This document shows, one piece after another, positions 12,670-57,376 of a stretch of DNA of 64,000 nucleotides. Below the pieces are notes generated by a model. That model did no database searches and was not told the origin of the DNA. It saw only the letters and a list, made by a program, of their open reading frames with translations. The position numbers and the translations under genes are program-made. The stretch comes from a phage. How positions within the stretch are numbered: the stretch's first letter is position 1; each line of letters starts with the position of its first letter. The stretch is from sequence record PX930852.1. One strand, 5' to 3'.

Positions 12670-12882
12670 ATGGCTCTTAAAAAGTTACATCCCAGAAGCG
12701 GTTATGGTAAGATAATTGACGATACAGACGGATTTACAGTCTTTACAGTCATCTGTCAAGATGATTCACAGATTGAAAAGGCTCTTGACGATTATCTTAA
12801 CGATGAACGTGAAAAGGTTAGGGCTACAAACATAGATTCATTGATTGACACTTCACGCAAACGGAAGAAGAAAGATGAATGA
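12670..12882 (+). CDS. hypothetical protein (70 aa)
   Basis: ORF adjacent to 12285..12668; lysine-rich C-terminus. Confidence 0.4.
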   Translation: MALKKLHPRSGYGKIIDDTDGFTVFTVICQDDSQIEKALDDYLNDEREKVRATNIDSLIDTSRKRKKKDE

Positions 12883-13174
12883 GATTTTTGACCCTTATGC
12901 TCCACAAGATGATTGGGAGGCTGATAGAGAGGCTGAAATGGAGAGTTATATTTGTCCAATGGATGTAGATGAAATGAGAGATTTCGTTGCACATCGTTTT
13001 AAGAGAGAGATTAAATCCAGAGGTCTTTCTCAAGAGCAAGTTGCTAAAATTTGTGGTATCTCTCAGGCTCGTGTATCCAACATAATCCATCTCACTGGTA
13101 ACGTCTCCCTTGAGTATATGTTGGAAGTATGTGAAAAATTTGGTGTTAATTTTAATTTAAGGTTGGCAGATTAA
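12875..13174 (+). CDS. HTH DNA-binding protein
   Basis: ORF 12845..13174 trimmed to ATG 12875 (ATGA-type overlap with upstream stop); helix-turn-helix-like LSQEQVAKICGISQARVSNI. Confidence 0.5.
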   Translation: MNEIFDPYAPQDDWEADREAEMESYICPMDVDEMRDFVAHRFKREIKSRGLSQEQVAKICGISQARVSNIIHLTGNVSLEYMLEVCEKFGVNFNLRLAD

Positions 13175-37749: not shown

Positions 37750-39366
37750 TCAACGTCTAAGCCCCTCATATGGGTTTCCTCTCACTAAATCTGTGTGAGC
37801 ACCCATTGATGGTGGCTTGAATAATTTAACTTCGTTAAGACTGTTGAAAGCATCACTGGTAGCATCCACTTGGTCATCTTTAGTTTTGCCATCACCACAA
37901 AAGCCTTCAAGCTCTTGAAAGTAAGCTTCGTTCCAACTACCTCTCAAGACTTTCACAAGTCCAGCTTCAGAAGCAGCAGAAAACCCCGCAAATCGGGTAA
38001 CTTTATCTTTATTTGTTGGTTTGGCTCTTGCACGATAACCTTTCTCGGCAAGTTTCCTGATGAGGGATGTTGCGTAGGATTTACCAGCAGCGCCTGGGTC
38101 TTGAGGGATAAAAATACCAGTTCGCTTACCGTCACTTTCAGCAGTCAAATTAATTTGTGTTTCGACTCCAGAGGGTCTATCTCTAAATCTTACTACATCA
38201 ATGATATAATAGCAACCGTCTTTTTTAGATTTACCCATCTTAACACCTGCTGTCCAGTCTGGATTAGGGTTAATCTCAGATGGTAAAGTTGCTGCTAAGT
38301 CCCATGCTCTAACATCAAATACATCTTCTGGGAGTGAATCAACAATCTCACACCACTGTCTTTGCCAATAGTTTGAACCTTCTGCACGAGCCTTCCAGTT
38401 ACCGAAACGAAGTCTTGCAACGTTTACAGGGGTGTTGTTTTCCAACTTACCACGGTACTTAGGTTCTAAGAAGTCAAGGATTGGGTTATCATCAATCGTA
38501 CCAGAGATGAATGTGTATGTTTGAGGAATCTCAAGAGGGAACATTTCAAGAATCTTATCCCTTTCCCAATCAGAAACCATCACACCATCATTCATTACAT
38601 ACCATCGAATACGACCACACTTTTCAGGGTCTGGATAGCCTTCTTCATCTAAGAATGGCTCTACCCAATCGTAAATAAAGTGGTCTCTGTCTGGGTTCAT
38701 GGAAATCTTCATGTATGAATCGCCTTCAGCACCAGAACGTAGACGGGTTTGTAGGTATGAAATCTGTGAAGCAGAGAAGTGTGTACCTTCGTCAAAGTAA
38801 ATAGCTGAGTATTCAATACCCTGATGACCTTCAGCGTGCTTTTCAAGTTCTAGGTAGGTAAACTTGATAGTTGCCCCAGAAGGGAATGTGATAGTCATTT
38901 TCTGCTCGTGAGGAATCCCACCAAACTTACCAAATAGTTTCTTTGCAGCAGGCCATAAACCACCTTGTAGCTGTGTTGTATTTCGACGGAAATATACAGC
39001 ATTATAGTTAGGGTCTTCAATAAATCTTAGAGAGTCCATTAACAATGCAGCAGTTTTACCAGCACCAGCAGCACCACCATAAAGAACCAAGTCAGCATTA
39101 GTATTTAAAAAGACCTCTTGAGAACCCGGCTGAGGGGCTACATAGTTCTTATCAGTCATCAATTTGAAGATAAGTCTAACTTGGTCTGGTGTGTATCTTA
39201 ATAAAGTCAGAATTTGAGTTGGAAGGAATTTAGAGGGGTCTTTACCGAATGATTTGATAATTTCTTTTACTTCATCAGAAAGCCCCAACTCTCCAGCTAG
39301 GACTTTCCTAACATCTTCCACTCGCTTCTGCTTAACAGCATTTAAGTCCATTAAGCGCCTCCGCAA
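37750..39366 (-). CDS. terminase large subunit
   Basis: 538 aa; Walker A GGAAGAGKT near N-terminus; C-terminal nuclease-like acidic residues. Confidence 0.8.
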   Translation of the reverse strand: MRRRLMDLNAVKQKRVEDVRKVLAGELGLSDEVKEIIKSFGKDPSKFLPTQILTLLRYTPDQVRLIFKLMTDKNYVAPQPGSQEVFLNTNADLVLYGGAAGAGKTAALLMDSLRFIEDPNYNAVYFRRNTTQLQGGLWPAAKKLFGKFGGIPHEQKMTITFPSGATIKFTYLELEKHAEGHQGIEYSAIYFDEGTHFSASQISYLQTRLRSGAEGDSYMKISMNPDRDHFIYDWVEPFLDEEGYPDPEKCGRIRWYVMNDGVMVSDWERDKILEMFPLEIPQTYTFISGTIDDNPILDFLEPKYRGKLENNTPVNVARLRFGNWKARAEGSNYWQRQWCEIVDSLPEDVFDVRAWDLAATLPSEINPNPDWTAGVKMGKSKKDGCYYIIDVVRFRDRPSGVETQINLTAESDGKRTGIFIPQDPGAAGKSYATSLIRKLAEKGYRARAKPTNKDKVTRFAGFSAASEAGLVKVLRGSWNEAYFQELEGFCGDGKTKDDQVDATSDAFNSLNEVKLFKPPSMGAHTDLVRGNPYEGLRR

Positions 39367-45189: not shown

Positions 45190-46605
45190 TTACCAGATAT
45201 AACGGTCAATCATTACTGCTTTGAGCATTACGCTGATTGGGTCAAACTTCTCACCACCAAGCAGAGCTTTTAAAGTAGCTGGAGAAAAACCAGATACCAT
45301 TGCTACACCGTTATCCTTAACAGATACTTCGCAAGTACCATTACGGTTTGCTAAGTACCAGAATACCAGTTGAGGCATTTCGTATCCAGCTTTTTTGTAC
45401 TTACTACGAATTGCTTCAAAGTTTGTACGACCGTTAGCTCCATCAACCTGATTGAACTCCATATCGGAGAAGATGATAAGCTTACTTGGCATATCTTTCT
45501 GAGTCAAGTTGTTTCTTTTACCTGTTTCAAGAATACGGTCAAAAGCTGCTTGTAAGTTAGTTGAGCCATATTCAACGTGTCGCATCACCTGACGATGACG
45601 GTTTCGTAAATCACCACTCAGTTCGATGAAGTGAGGGTTTGTTGAATAAACCATCAACTCATTCTTAAAGCAACCTGTATTACGTTCTGCTACATACAAT
45701 GCAAGTGAAACACCAATATCAAGAGCAGTAATTGAACCAAAATTCACCCAAGACATTGAGCTTGAAACATCAGACATACACAAGATGTTTTCACCCTCTG
45801 CCATCCAGTTTGGTAGTGCTTTCCACTGCTCATTAGCAACATCTGCATTACCATGCTTAACAGATTTAATTACATCGTATGGGTAAACAGCGCCAGCATT
45901 AATCTTAGCCTCACCCTTTGATAAGGACTCGATGTAAGCTTTGTAGCGTTCTCCATCTTTGCGGTTAAACAGTTTTTGGTAACGTGCAGCAGCAAGTGAA
46001 GGAATCTTACTGTAGTCAATCTTACCAAACTCATTAGCAGAGATTTTTTGCTCAACTGTATCAGATAGTGCAGACAACAGTGTGCGGTACTCTTTCTCAC
46101 TCAAGTTGGCAAACTTGCAGAAACGTTTTACAAACTGCTTATGACGTGGTTTGACTCGTGGTAACCACTTAGCCGCCAAACCTGCTGTTGCAGGGTCTAG
46201 TAATGCTGCTTCTAGATGTTTGAAGGCATCTGTCTCGAAACGAGTACCTACGAAGATTTTGAAGTCATCAAAACGACCAAGTTCTGCAATCTTATCCATA
46301 ATGCGAAGAACCTGCGTAGGCTCTAAAACTTTGTCTTCAATCGCTTGAAGTAAAACAGTTCTGAAGGCTTTACGCTCACCCATACCTTCTCGTACATCTC
46401 GCATATGAAGCAAAATACGAACTGCAACATCAACATCCTCACGCAAAGCTTTGTAGAACAGGTCTGGTAAGATTTCTACATTGCTACGGCTTGAACCAGC
46501 AGCTTTGTAAAAGTCTACAAGAGCAGACATTGATGAAGTATGGTTTACAGCACCATTTTCAGTTCGACCTGCATGAAGGTGCGCATGTTTAAATAATTCG
46601 CTCAT
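45190..46605 (-). CDS. von Willebrand factor A (vWA) domain protein, possibly Ro60/TROVE-like (Rsr-like)
   Basis: 471 aa; MIDAS motif DVSSS (DxSxS) at about residue 285; helical N-terminal half; lies directly upstream of the tRNA array. Confidence 0.5.
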   Translation of the reverse strand: MSELFKHAHLHAGRTENGAVNHTSSMSALVDFYKAAGSSRSNVEILPDLFYKALREDVDVAVRILLHMRDVREGMGERKAFRTVLLQAIEDKVLEPTQVLRIMDKIAELGRFDDFKIFVGTRFETDAFKHLEAALLDPATAGLAAKWLPRVKPRHKQFVKRFCKFANLSEKEYRTLLSALSDTVEQKISANEFGKIDYSKIPSLAAARYQKLFNRKDGERYKAYIESLSKGEAKINAGAVYPYDVIKSVKHGNADVANEQWKALPNWMAEGENILCMSDVSSSMSWVNFGSITALDIGVSLALYVAERNTGCFKNELMVYSTNPHFIELSGDLRNRHRQVMRHVEYGSTNLQAAFDRILETGKRNNLTQKDMPSKLIIFSDMEFNQVDGANGRTNFEAIRSKYKKAGYEMPQLVFWYLANRNGTCEVSVKDNGVAMVSGFSPATLKALLGGEKFDPISVMLKAVMIDRYIW

Positions 46606-46686: not shown

Positions 46687-47058
46687 TTATTTTTTAAGAG
46701 TCGCTACAGCAGAGAACGTTGGTTTGTTATCTGTCTGTTGTTGACCACCATTATCAGGAGTCTTCTTAGTGTCTGCTGCAAGTGCTTTCATCTCACCTGC
46801 TGAGTGAGTAAAGATAGTTTTACCGACCTCAATCATACTCTTGATGGTTACGTCATCTGTGTTTAACCCGAACTCTGCAAGCTTAGCAGCATCCCTTGTA
46901 ACAATCGCTTCAAATAACTTTGCAGCAAACTCAGCAGAATTGTCAATGGTCAGTTGAGCTTTTACAAGTGAGCTTTTGTTGCGAGAGCCTTTTGGTCTTC
47001 CAGATGGGTTTCCAGATTGGCCTTTTTTAAACTGGCCTTTGTTTGTTCTGTTTTTCAT
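46687..47058 (-). CDS. hypothetical protein with GNPSGRPKG motif
   Basis: 123-aa ORF; basic N-terminus with Gly/Pro-rich motif. Confidence 0.45.
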   Translation of the reverse strand: MKNRTNKGQFKKGQSGNPSGRPKGSRNKSSLVKAQLTIDNSAEFAAKLFEAIVTRDAAKLAEFGLNTDDVTIKSMIEVGKTIFTHSAGEMKALAADTKKTPDNGGQQQTDNKPTFSAVATLKK

Positions 47059-54432: not shown

Positions 54433-54886
54433 AGAAGTAGTGCAAAGAGCAATGCTTGACAATTCTACTAAAGATGAGATGTACACAGAAATTTGTGATA
54501 AGTTGAACTGCTCAAGACATGCTGCTAAGGTTCTTGTACATTGTTTTATCTGGGAATGCTCAGAAGCTTATATGAAACACGTAGCTTTTGAGAGTTCTCA
54601 TTTACTCGGTGATGCAAAAATAGGTGTAGCACTAAAAGAGCCTGAGATGAAAACAGTACCTAAAGTTGGTAATGTGTATAAACTAAAAAATTTTATTACA
54701 GGCGAGATTGTTGCAGAAGGTGAAGTGCAACAGGTTTATCATGATGGTAAATATCTGTTTAAGATATTCGAGTATGATAGTCGTTACAGACACTTATGTG
54801 GGATTACATTTTTAGTTTCAGAAGATGACCTCATCAAGAACAATAGTAATAAATTCGCAGTACCAGAATATCAAGTTTTACGATAA
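54422..54886 (+). CDS. hypothetical protein (154 aa)
   Basis: overlaps upstream stop. Confidence 0.45.
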   Translation: MKIKEVVQRAMLDNSTKDEMYTEICDKLNCSRHAAKVLVHCFIWECSEAYMKHVAFESSHLLGDAKIGVALKEPEMKTVPKVGNVYKLKNFITGEIVAEGEVQQVYHDGKYLFKIFEYDSRYRHLCGITFLVSEDDLIKNNSNKFAVPEYQVLR

Positions 54887-54899
54887 TGGTGTGATATCT

Positions 54900-55448
54900 A
54901 TGGAAAAAGATAACTTAAAAGAAGTTGAAGGTAACTACCTAGTACTTGACTGGAGTGATGTTCGAGAAGCACTCTCCGAAGAAAATCTTGACTGGTTCGA
55001 ACAAATTATCTTTGCAGTACGGCATAACAGAGAAGTTGAAAATGGTAAAGAGCCACTTGAAGGAATCTTTGTAGAAAGGTCTTATCCGTTCTATGAAGAC
55101 ACTTTGCAGAAAGTTAAGATGTACTTTAGACAGAAGAACCGTAAAGTGGTCACTATGGTATCTCTTGGTGGACAGAGTATGTCTGTGATGGAAGATATCA
55201 ACCCTAAGAGACCGAGTAAAGGTATTTGTATAAAAATCACAGGACATGAAGAGTACATCTCAGTAGACGATTTTAGTTCATTCTGTAGTGGTTCTTGTGT
55301 CTTTAATGGTTTTCACTATGATATCCGAGTGTACCCAATCAAGGGAGATGATATCATGATGCAGATATTCGATAACAACAATGGATTCACTCATTTTTAT
55401 CAGACAACTAAGTCATCCCTAAAAACAGTTCTGGAAACACTGATTTAA
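54900..55448 (+). CDS. hypothetical protein
   Basis: ORF 54825..55448 trimmed to ATG 54900 to avoid overlap; followed by terminator. Confidence 0.45.
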   Translation: MEKDNLKEVEGNYLVLDWSDVREALSEENLDWFEQIIFAVRHNREVENGKEPLEGIFVERSYPFYEDTLQKVKMYFRQKNRKVVTMVSLGGQSMSVMEDINPKRPSKGICIKITGHEEYISVDDFSSFCSGSCVFNGFHYDIRVYPIKGDDIMMQIFDNNNGFTHFYQTTKSSLKTVLETLI

Positions 55449-55459
55449 AATATCTTAAG

Positions 55460-55490
55460 AGCCTCCTTAATCGGGGGCTTTTTAATTTTT
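55460..55490 (+). terminator. rho-independent terminator closing plus-strand operon
   Basis: AGCCTCC-TTAATC-GGGGGCT followed by TTTTTAATTTTT. Confidence 0.65.
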
Positions 55491-57064
55491 ATAAAATTTT
55501 ATCGGTTGTCCCAACCTCTGGGTCACCATCATATGTGAATAAAATATCTATCCTTCTTAACAACCTTCTTAATCTTACTCTCTATATAGTTATATAGTAC
55601 TATATAGTATCTTAGTAACTATCTAGTGGTCTTAATAGCCCCTCTGTATAACCCTTCTAACAAGCCCTCTAACAAGCCTTCTTAACAACCTATACAATCA
55701 CCTTAACCATCCCTCTACACCTTCTTAGAAGCTCCTATACACCTCTTAATCTCTATGTCAGCTATGATAATCTCTATAGGTGTTCACTAGGTATTACTAA
55801 GCCTCTATATAGACTGTTTTAATAAACTTAACAGGAATATCTTTACAGGCCTTATCTCACAAGGTCTAACACGGTACTAACAAGGTATCTTATAAGCCTG
55901 TTATTACCTGTATTTTTAAAAGGCTGTATAGGTAATTATTCAGAATCTTAAAATTTTTATAAAATAGGACTGTCAAGTCATTTTTTAGGGTCTTTGAAGG
56001 AACTCAAAAATATCTGATTAGGATGTATATCTGCTTGGTAGCCCTTAACAGCTCCCTTACAAGTACTTTGCAAAATTTTAAAATATCCTTAACAATTTCT
56101 TAACAGTTCTAACACCTTCTTAACAACTCTTCAAAGGTCTTAACAGATTCTTAACAGAACTAACAAGGCTGTAACAGATTTCTAACAAGTACTGAATAGG
56201 CTTTACAGAATCTTAACAGATGACTAACAAGAGCTAACAAGTTAATTTTTAAGAGTTATTTTGTTAAGATAATTAACAAGTTTCTAACAAGTGTTTAATC
56301 TTTTTAACAAGCTATTAACATGGTCACTATCTCTTTTCTTATCGTTCCCTTTCCTTTCTTAGTGACTTCTTAAACATACCTCTTAAAAGCCCTCTATAGC
56401 TCCTTGTAAGCCCTTTTAAGCCTCTTCCTAGTATCTATCCCCCAACTGTACAGATAGCTCTTTATAGGGCTTTACAGGAGCTTATAAGGCTATGTCAAAG
56501 ACTCTTACAAGGCTTTTACGTGGTCTTAACAGAGATTTAACAAGGGGCTAACAAGTTGCTAACAAGTGCCTTAAAAGCATAACTATGTAGGGATTGTTAA
56601 GAAATTGTTAAGAAAATGTTAAGGGGGCTAGCATTTACGTAACTTTATAGCCTCTTTTACGTAACTTTGAAGTAACTTTATAGCCCCTATAACATACTTT
56701 TAAGACACTACCAATAGGATTCGATAGATTCCTATCTCATAGCCCTTTTTAATAGTTCACAAGAATACTAACGAGATGATAAAGCTTACACCCTTATAAG
56801 ATTCTTTTAAGGCTCTAGGAAGTTTTATAAAGGGATTTTTAGGGTGAGTTAATGCAATCCCTTAAGTTAGGTTGATAAGGCTGTTATAGAGCTTTATAGA
56901 GCGTTTTAGTGGTTGCCCTTCCCTTTCGGGTTATGGGCTTATATTTAAGTTGATTTGATAAGAAGATATAGAGTAGACTATAGAGTTATTGCTTTTAAGG
57001 TCTGGTAAGATTCTAACTTGTTAGGGGAGTCTGGGAAGATTCTGGGAAGGGATTGGATAGACGT
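55491..57064 (+). repeat. ORF-free region dense in TAACAAG/TAACAGA-type motifs
   Basis: no ORF of 60 aa or more in any frame; tens of CTTAACAA/CTAACAAG/TTAACAGA copies almost all on plus strand; secondary repeats TTACGTAACTTT and GTAACTTTATAGCC. Confidence 0.7.
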
Positions 57065-57094
57065 AAAAAAGCCCCTATGAGAAGGAGCTTTTCA
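57065..57094. terminator. terminator closing minus-strand early array
   Basis: AAAAAA-AGCCCCT-loop-AGGAGCT-TTTT; second hairpin GGGGCTAAATAGCCCC at 57102-57117. Confidence 0.5.
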
Positions 57095-57127
57095 GGTATC
57101 TGGGGCTAAATAGCCCCGTTGCGTCGA

Positions 57128-57376
57128 TTAGTTGTAACCTTGTTTGCTGTAGTATAGGGAGACGATTTTTTCTCCCCAGTAGTGGTAGTGATATTCCTCG
57201 TTTATGGCTTCTTTTACAGCGTCCTTCCAAAAGTCATCGGTAGGGTTATAATCTGGTAGCACCTGCTGAATCAGCATTTTGATAAGGTCAAAGGTGTTAT
57301 CTGTTCCACCGATATCGAATTTTGCATCAAGTTCGTGGCAGCCATAAGCATTAACAGTTACGCGGATAGTTGACAT
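57128..57376 (-). CDS. hypothetical early protein (82 aa)
   Basis: preceded by type-A cassette and GGAGA RBS; followed by terminator at 57065. Confidence 0.5.
   Translation of the reverse strand: MSTIRVTVNAYGCHELDAKFDIGGTDNTFDLIKMLIQQVLPDYNPTDDFWKDAVKEAINEEYHYHYWGEKIVSLYYSKQGYN

Follow-up and report, generated by a model that had tools for sequence, protein, structure and literature searches.

The 64,000-nucleotide stretch of phage DNA analyzed here (sequence record PX930852.1; hereafter the window) comes from a Felixounavirus, a Felix O1-like myovirus. It contains a 1.68-kb gap, at positions 55449 to 57127, between the stop codon of a plus-strand gene and the stop codon of a minus-strand gene. 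In this gap lies a direct terminal repeat (DTR), at 56037 to 56628, which carries a helically phased array of short TTAACA units, oriented symmetrically with respect to the two genome ends and conserved in phages of four Ounavirinae genera. We consider it probable, from comparisons of sequence, that the window is a Felixounavirus genome written across the junction of its physical ends and that the array is a putative binding platform for packaging or end protection.

An earlier note on this DNA, made from its letters and a list of its open reading frames (ORFs), had singled out positions 55491 to 57064 as a zone without any ORF of 60 amino acids or more, lying between convergent terminators and packed with TAACAAG-like motifs, nearly all in plus orientation. 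The description of the zone's limits held up. The sole ORF of at least 30 amino acids anywhere within 55449 to 57127 is a 31-residue frame with a TTG start, on the minus strand (55978 to 56073). Terminators are present on both sides, supported on the plus side by the terminator scan and on both sides by folding (Table 1); the pattern scan missed the minus-strand hairpin with its U6 tail (approximately 57065 to 57093), which was found by folding. These "convergent terminators" belong simply to the outermost gene at either end of a linear genome, with transcription directed outward, and the two gene blocks look convergent because the sequence has been written through the end-to-end junction. A coding remnant was rejected on the lack of an ORF together with conservation higher than that of the neighboring genes.

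The positions of the ends come from relatives. The best match to the region is Escherichia phage VpaE1_ev78, at 97% identity, and 204 phage records, nearly all of them Felixounavirus, hold at least 80% of it. In those records the region is invariably flanked by the homologues of Felix O1 ORF24 and ORF23, and it is either unannotated or bears tiny automatic features; the "repeat_region" features of some records are small automatic annotations of this kind and were rejected as evidence. A sensitive search revealed that several GenBank records start or stop inside the region, at two recurring positions. Indeed, the record of phage Ro111lw (MH571750) has an identical 613 bp at both of its ends, and that of phage ZX4221 (OR498728) an identical 591 bp, and both repeats map to 56037 to 56628 of the window. 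Moreover, the pEP20 record begins at the equivalent of 56037, the NBEco005 record begins at the equivalent of 56628, and the BPS15Q2 and MET-P1-301 records each have one end no more than about 20 bp from 56628. The same sequence is thus found at both virion ends in close relatives and, by homology, in this phage. The ends are fixed and sequence-specific, in that independent records share the equivalents of 56037 and 56628, with an uncertainty of 2 to 3 nucleotides. The 127-bp end repeat of the PC79-13 record was also considered and was rejected, as its appearance is that of an overlap from assembly rather than a terminus.

A DTR in this genus is already in the literature. For Ro111lw, PhageTerm assigned a 613-bp direct terminal repeat and the class of T7-like short-DTR packaging (PMC6454146), and for a second Felixounavirus, Pr103Blw, it gave a DTR of 581 bp (PMC8303462). 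Short terminal repeats had been deduced for Felix O1 in its genome paper, from the size of the DNA in pulsed-field gel electrophoresis. On the region itself, the Felix O1, VpaE1 and Felixounavirus comparative genome papers and the Bas63 gene-essentiality paper are silent, and the phased, end-symmetric TTAACA array and its Ounavirinae-wide conservation appear not to have been described in the literature searched.

The array is far outside the range of chance. Within 55491 to 57064, the pentamer TAACA occurs 29 times on the plus strand and 7 times on the minus strand, versus 2.8 +/- 1.7 (maximum, 11; z = 15.7) in 1000 dinucleotide-preserving shuffles of the same region, and its density in the remainder of the window predicts 2.5 for the gap. 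The strand bias is significant (binomial p = 3e-4). The heptamer TAACAAG has 13 plus-strand copies and 1 minus-strand copy, versus 0.23 expected. This enumeration on both strands against a shuffled null had been proposed in the earlier note, and the result, a frequency far above that expected from base composition, confirms the motif-packed, plus-biased zone that it described. The motif is not spread across the whole zone, however. It abounds in the DTR (21 plus, 4 minus) and in the flank at 55491 to 56036, but at 56629 to 57064 its count is no higher than chance in the shuffle comparison. In all, 25 of the 36 TAACA cores of the gap fall within the DTR. The direct repeats TTACGTAACTTT and GTAACTTTATAGCC, also named in that note, are real and are located at 56629 to 56694.

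The spacing of the units is as striking as their number. The extended unit reads tCTTAACAag, and the commonest distance between neighboring units is exactly 11 bp. The corresponding pattern, TAACA-N6-TAACA, occurs 16 times in the window versus 0.38 expected, and 14 of these occurrences are inside the gap. Between 56080 and 56330, spacings of 11, 11 and 9 bp build a 31-bp super-period, with a mean period of 10.3 bp, and the helical phasing of the main array (R = 0.90) exceeds the maximum obtained from 2000 random placements (0.76). This places the sites on a single face of the helix.

The orientation of the units mirrors the two physical ends. The left DTR boundary falls between TGTATATCTGCTT and GGTAGCCCTTAACA and the right boundary between TGTTAAGGGGGC and TAGCATTTACGTAAC, and immediately within each boundary stands (TA)GCCC(CC)TTAACA, in inverted orientation at one relative to the other. 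Read 5' to 3' inward from either end, the DNA presents this motif and then TTAACA units every 11 bp, in a series of many at one end and of three at the other. The boundary sequences do not vary among the 22 aligned Felixounavirus sequences. TGTATATCTGCTT is also present in phages Sf13 and PC79-13, takes the form TGTATATCTAC in Erwinia phage M7, and is a candidate for part of the terminase cutting site.

Further repeats surround these elements. An 8-bp palindrome, TTACGTAA, within TAGCATTTACGTAAC, is present in two copies 22 bp apart (56635 and 56657) just outside the right boundary. The flank at 55491 to 56036 has three CTATATAG palindromes (55582, 55600 and 55805) and C-rich units of about 12 bp, of the CCTTCTAACAAG type, at 55645 to 55750. 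The central DTR segment has an internal dyad (56398 to 56420 with 56460 to 56482), and GC skew switches sign there. Two side observations concern the DTR boundaries and edges. A 24-bp insertion, TTGATTCGGTAGAATCTACCTCAT, is found just left of 56022, outside the left boundary, in L024, L025, L034 and pEP20 (L011). The DTR edges at 56078 to 56114 and 56586 to 56622 form a 37-nucleotide inverted repeat, 81% complementary. This repeat is the main contributor to the predicted fold of the single strand (z = -3.3), so that a DTR in single-stranded form might fold back on itself.

Table 1. Features of the end junction and the terminase gene; identities are from 22 Felixounavirus sequences compared with the window
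Feature	Position	Strand	Identity	Remarks
Large terminase subunit (TerL), T4-type	37753-39366	-		Pfam Terminase_6N (2e-43) and Terminase_6C (4e-33); phrog_979 (8e-234)
Last gene of plus-strand block, Felix O1 ORF24 homologue	54825-55448	+	91.0%	
Intrinsic terminator of plus-strand block	55457-55490	+		Terminator scan; hairpin 55457-55482, then U-run; -14.9 kcal/mol, z = -3.2
Left flank, unique, non-coding	55491-56036	+	95.4%	Most conserved segment; in the virion just inside the right-end DTR copy; TAACA 7 plus, 1 minus
Conserved element TGTATATCTGCTT	56024-56036	+		Abuts left DTR boundary on the outside; invariant in 22 Felixounavirus sequences
Direct terminal repeat, 592 bp	56037-56628	.	91.3%	One copy in this sequence; at both ends of virion DNA (by homology)
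Main array	56046-56320	+		TAACA cores 17 plus, 1 minus; neighbors mostly 11 bp apart, some 9 bp
Central DTR segment lacking TAACA	56330-56520	.		Degenerate CTTnnAAG-like units of 10-11 bp
Four TAACAAG units	56527-56564	+		Spacing exactly 11 bp
Three inverted units (TGTTAAG on plus strand)	56593-56628	-		Spacing 11 bp; abut right boundary TGTTAAGGGGGC
Right flank, unique, non-coding	56629-57064	.	81.5%	Opens with TAGCATTTACGTAAC; holds GTAACTTTATAGCC repeats; conservation falls further out
Terminator region of minus-strand array	57065-57117	-		Two hairpins, the second followed by U6; -28.5 kcal/mol, z = -4.8
Last gene of minus-strand array, Felix O1 ORF23 homologue	57128-57376	-	76.8%	

Conservation of the region matches or surpasses that of the flanking genes, at 82 to 95% identity versus 77 to 91%. 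Within the DTR, the TAACA cores are 97.3% conserved versus 89.6% at other positions. Comparison with related phages, another check proposed at the outset, thus gave a well-conserved region in which the array is kept, and the identity over 22 genomes bears out the view that this is a functional site array and not decayed coding sequence. Beyond the genus, the array is retained in the gap of the Mooglevirus Sf13 (23 plus, 5 minus) and at the junction of the Suspvirus PC79-13 (25 plus, 7 minus). In Erwinia phage M7 (Kolesnikvirus), about 85 bases can be aligned with the region, yet an exact 444-bp DTR is present at the homologous place. It has homologous boundary elements and 20 TAACA/TGTTA cores, versus 2.0 expected, that point inward from both ends. 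The DTRs of the window, Ro111lw and ZX4221 have 25, 25 and 24 TAACA cores, versus 2.3, 2.5 and 2.3 in shuffled sequence, and each of these three and that of M7 has 7 to 13 pairs spaced at 11 bp, versus 0.01 expected. Four Ounavirinae genera share ctTGTTAAgA as the consensus of the unit and 11 bp as the prevailing spacing. Retention of motif, spacing and orientation amid otherwise diverged sequence argues for a sequence-specific protein-binding function.

A packaging mechanism would accommodate these features. A T4-type terminase would recognize the boundary elements, TGTATATCTGCTT next to GGTAGCCCTTAACA and TGTTAAGGGGGC next to TAGCATTTACGTAAC, in a concatemer with one copy of the DTR. It would make two boundary cuts about 590 bp apart and, given that both boundaries carry the same motif in inverted orientation, these would fall on opposite strands. 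Strand-displacement synthesis would then complete the full repeat for each genome; duplication of the terminal repeat by strand displacement is the T7 model. An oligomerizing, sequence-specific protein would bind the 25 one-face TTAACA units in the DTR and, once bound, would mark the junction for packaging, or would organize, hold and protect the ends. We infer this link between array and packaging from the layout of the sequence. The cuts at the DTR boundaries would be expected to be made by TerL. Among the roles put forward in the earlier note (origin, partition site, packaging site, replication terminus or protein trap), the packaging terminus is supported by the DTR homology, and neither a partition site nor a replication terminus is needed to account for the layout.

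Our best guess is that the array-binding protein is most likely an unrecognized small terminase subunit or another phage protein. One gene of interest encodes a 123-residue DUF5681 protein (46690 to 47058, minus strand) and opens the gene block that extends, via the tRNA cluster, to the TerL and portal genes. The protein has no relative in the PDB and is named "hypothetical" everywhere; its structural model, one long helical hairpin, is of low confidence (predicted local distance difference test score [pLDDT], 67). That it is the small terminase subunit is possible but unproven. The 66-residue ORF just upstream of TerL encodes an acidic product with no family match in Pfam or PHROG. The only recognizable helix-turn-helix (HTH) protein among the 97 window ORFs scanned is a 109-residue XRE/HTH_3 protein (12845 to 13171, plus strand; E = 6e-10), and TTACGTAA and CTATATAG, being palindromic, are sites of a kind suited to an HTH protein that acts as a dimer.

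Several points weigh against the proposed role or its details. The same Pfam and PHROG scans detected neither a small terminase subunit nor a winged-helix protein among the 97 ORFs. The termini of this particular phage are placed by homology with its relatives. Record boundaries differ by 2 to 3 nucleotides between M7 and Felixounavirus, and a few records end 14 to 20 bp away; the exact cut sites are therefore uncertain. The 11-bp unit at the right DTR edge, TTTTCTTAACA, is present in 2 to 5 copies among Felixounavirus (homologues are found in L014, L017, L018 and L031), which means that the number of sites need not be fixed. Finally, to our knowledge, the function of the short-repeat arrays of T7, with which the present array is most readily compared, is also unproven.

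Phage T7 is the closest architectural analogue. It too has a short, exact DTR at a non-coding concatemer junction, with fixed, non-permuted ends, and a 6- to 7-bp motif repeated many times in one orientation in and beside that repeat. In the T7 record, which has a 160-bp DTR, CTAAAG is present 11 times on the plus strand and never on the minus strand in the first 350 bp, mostly at 13-bp spacing; the CCTAAAG arrays are called SRL and SRR in the T7 literature. The comparable strand counts here are those of the DTR, given above, and of the left flank (Table 1). However, the motif is TTAACA and not CCTAAAG, and the spacing is 11 bp (phased, mean 10.3 bp) instead of mostly 13 bp. The DTR here is 3.7 times as long as that of T7 and contains most of the units, a few of which are inverted and give the two ends their symmetry. 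Unlike in T7, no promoters were detected beside the DTR, where the promoter scan was at chance level, and the terminase is T4-type and not of the T7 gp19 type. Motif, spacing and terminase type all differ from those of T7, and the present system is therefore an analogue and not a member of the same class.

Phage T5 offers a second comparison. Its left terminal repeat includes a large untranslated, repeat-rich region with eight DnaA boxes (bioRxiv 10.1101/866236). Like the T5 injection stop signal region, the region described here is non-coding on the kilobase scale, has direct and inverted repeats, is linked to a terminal repeat and is conserved across its group. In T5 the defining features are two-step DNA injection and a conserved set of eight DnaA boxes, within a repeat of 10 kb; the repeat here is 0.6 kb long, and the gap has a single DnaA-box-like match (TTWTNCACA).

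An alternative that we regard as unlikely is an iteron-type replication origin, in which an initiator would bind the phased repeats and melt neighboring A+T-rich DNA; such a role could coexist with that of a DTR. As in the iteron arrays of plasmid and phage origins, the repeats are direct, in the same orientation and helically phased. The A+T-rich 40-mers nearby (82 to 88%), candidates for an unwinding element, are at 55927 to 55966 (88%), 56073 to 56112 and 56244 to 56283, but the entire region is A+T-rich. T7 promoters are annotated beside the terminal repeat near the genome ends, and T7 end-proximal promoters can act as secondary origins. However, the units are 7 to 10 bp long at 11-bp spacing, far shorter than classical iterons of 17 to 22 bp. 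Sites for host initiation factors are scarce: beyond the one DnaA-like match, the gap has no integration host factor (IHF) consensus. The same host-factor motif scan gave no match to Chi, PhoP or PmrA patterns. Moreover, there is no initiator-like gene adjacent, the neighboring genes having no recognizable domains in Pfam or PHROG. The position at the genome ends, which is itself unlike that of iteron arrays, and the end-symmetric orientation are explained without an origin.

We attach only a small probability to the reading of the units by a host response regulator of the OmpR/PhoB family, for which phosphorylated ArcA (ArcA-P) would be the likeliest candidate, acting as an architectural factor at the ends or being titrated by decoy sites. 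ArcA-P sites have 2 to 5 direct repeats with a TGTTA core at 11 bp center to center and the consensus ATGTTAAAAA-1-ATGTTAAAAA, and more than two repeats lengthen the footprint (PMC4173790). On the reverse strand, the units here have the core TGTTA(A), with 14 pairs at exactly 11 bp in the gap versus 0.38 expected in the whole window, and phages of Escherichia, Salmonella, Shigella and Erwinia all retain TGTTA. The two systems thus share a direct-repeat TGTTA core, strict 11-bp center-to-center spacing and arrays of more than two repeats. However, natural ArcA-P operators have 2 to 5 repeats and lie at promoters, whereas here there are 25, at a genome terminus, in both orientations and with no promoter. 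Beyond TGTTA, moreover, the units match the ArcA 10-mer ATGTTAAAAA, used as a consensus and not as a weight matrix, hardly better than background TGTTA sites do. Triple TGTTAAG at 11-bp spacing is also found in 54 unrelated viral contigs of IMG/VR, many of them from marine samples (two control heptamers, 25 and 4), and the pattern therefore appears not to be specific to enterobacterial phages. We regard the ArcA-P likeness of the units as a resemblance only.

Were this improbable case to hold, the Ounavirinae ends would be a platform of about 25 head-to-tail TGTTA units at 11-bp spacing that recruits a host winged-helix regulator, with ArcA-P as the best sequence match. A host redox-sensing regulator would then coat, bend or synapse the phage DNA ends or, alternatively, ArcA-P would be titrated off its regulon as genome copies build up, and the processing of phage ends would be coupled to oxygen status in the gut host.

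Two further observations were made in the viral contigs. An element, CCAATGTTAAGCCAATGTTAAGAAATTGTTAAG, usually extended by TAATTGTTAAG to give four TGTTAAG at 11 bp, recurs in no fewer than 11 viral contigs with no relationship to Felix O1, many of which come from marine metagenomes (loci L046, L052, L055, L061, L071, L074, L077, L078, L087, L088 and L094). Near-exact tandem arrays of the 11-bp AAGAACTTGTT occur at four places (L054, L063, L075 and L090) in an 81-kb contig, IMGVR_UViG_3300042863_002604.

It is very improbable that the arrays are neutral products of replication slippage or unequal recombination, without sequence-specific function. Such an origin would fit the variation of the 11-bp edge unit from 2 to 5 copies among relatives and the frequent occurrence, in viral contigs, of A+T-rich heptamers repeated in tandem every 11 bp. 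However, the region is conserved as well as or better than the neighboring genes, and its cores more so than its spacers. Core and spacing persist in M7, where about 85 bp aligns, and the orientation is end-symmetric. We give almost no credence to a non-coding RNA with a repeated motif, such as a protein sponge: the plus-strand RNA of the DTR does fold at z = -3.3, but the inverted arrays at the two edges of the DTR account for that fold (z = -1.7 for the opposite strand), Rfam searches (by E value on the region and at the gathering threshold on the window) returned only tRNAs located elsewhere, promoter-like sites are at chance level (7 versus 6.2), and the bracketing terminators point into the region.

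Other features of the window deserve mention. The tetramer GATC is absent from all 64 kb, versus 183 +/- 13 occurrences in dinucleotide-preserving shuffles, counting both strands, an indication that sites of the Dam, MboI or DpnII type are strongly avoided. On the minus strand, 25 tRNA genes are clustered at 39799 to 45025, where a weak extra tRNA-like Rfam match (43300 to 43378) was not called by ARAGORN. Directly upstream of the cluster, a 471-residue protein (45193 to 46605) matches phrog_850, annotated "RNA-binding protein"; in the Bas63 essentiality paper, gp130, directly upstream of the Bas63 tRNA genes, is termed Ro60-like.

Felix O1-like phages are widely used, in Salmonella and E. coli typing, in biocontrol and in cell-free rebooting. 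Most of their GenBank records have been opened at rIIA, show nothing in the 1.6-kb stretch, or have spurious small ORFs there. Identification of this stretch as the end junction gives the correct genome coordinates and the elements to keep in genome assembly and engineering, and it provides a defined candidate for the cis-acting packaging site. The TTAACA array, conserved over four genera, is a tractable system in which to address the role of terminal short-repeat arrays, a question that goes back to T7.

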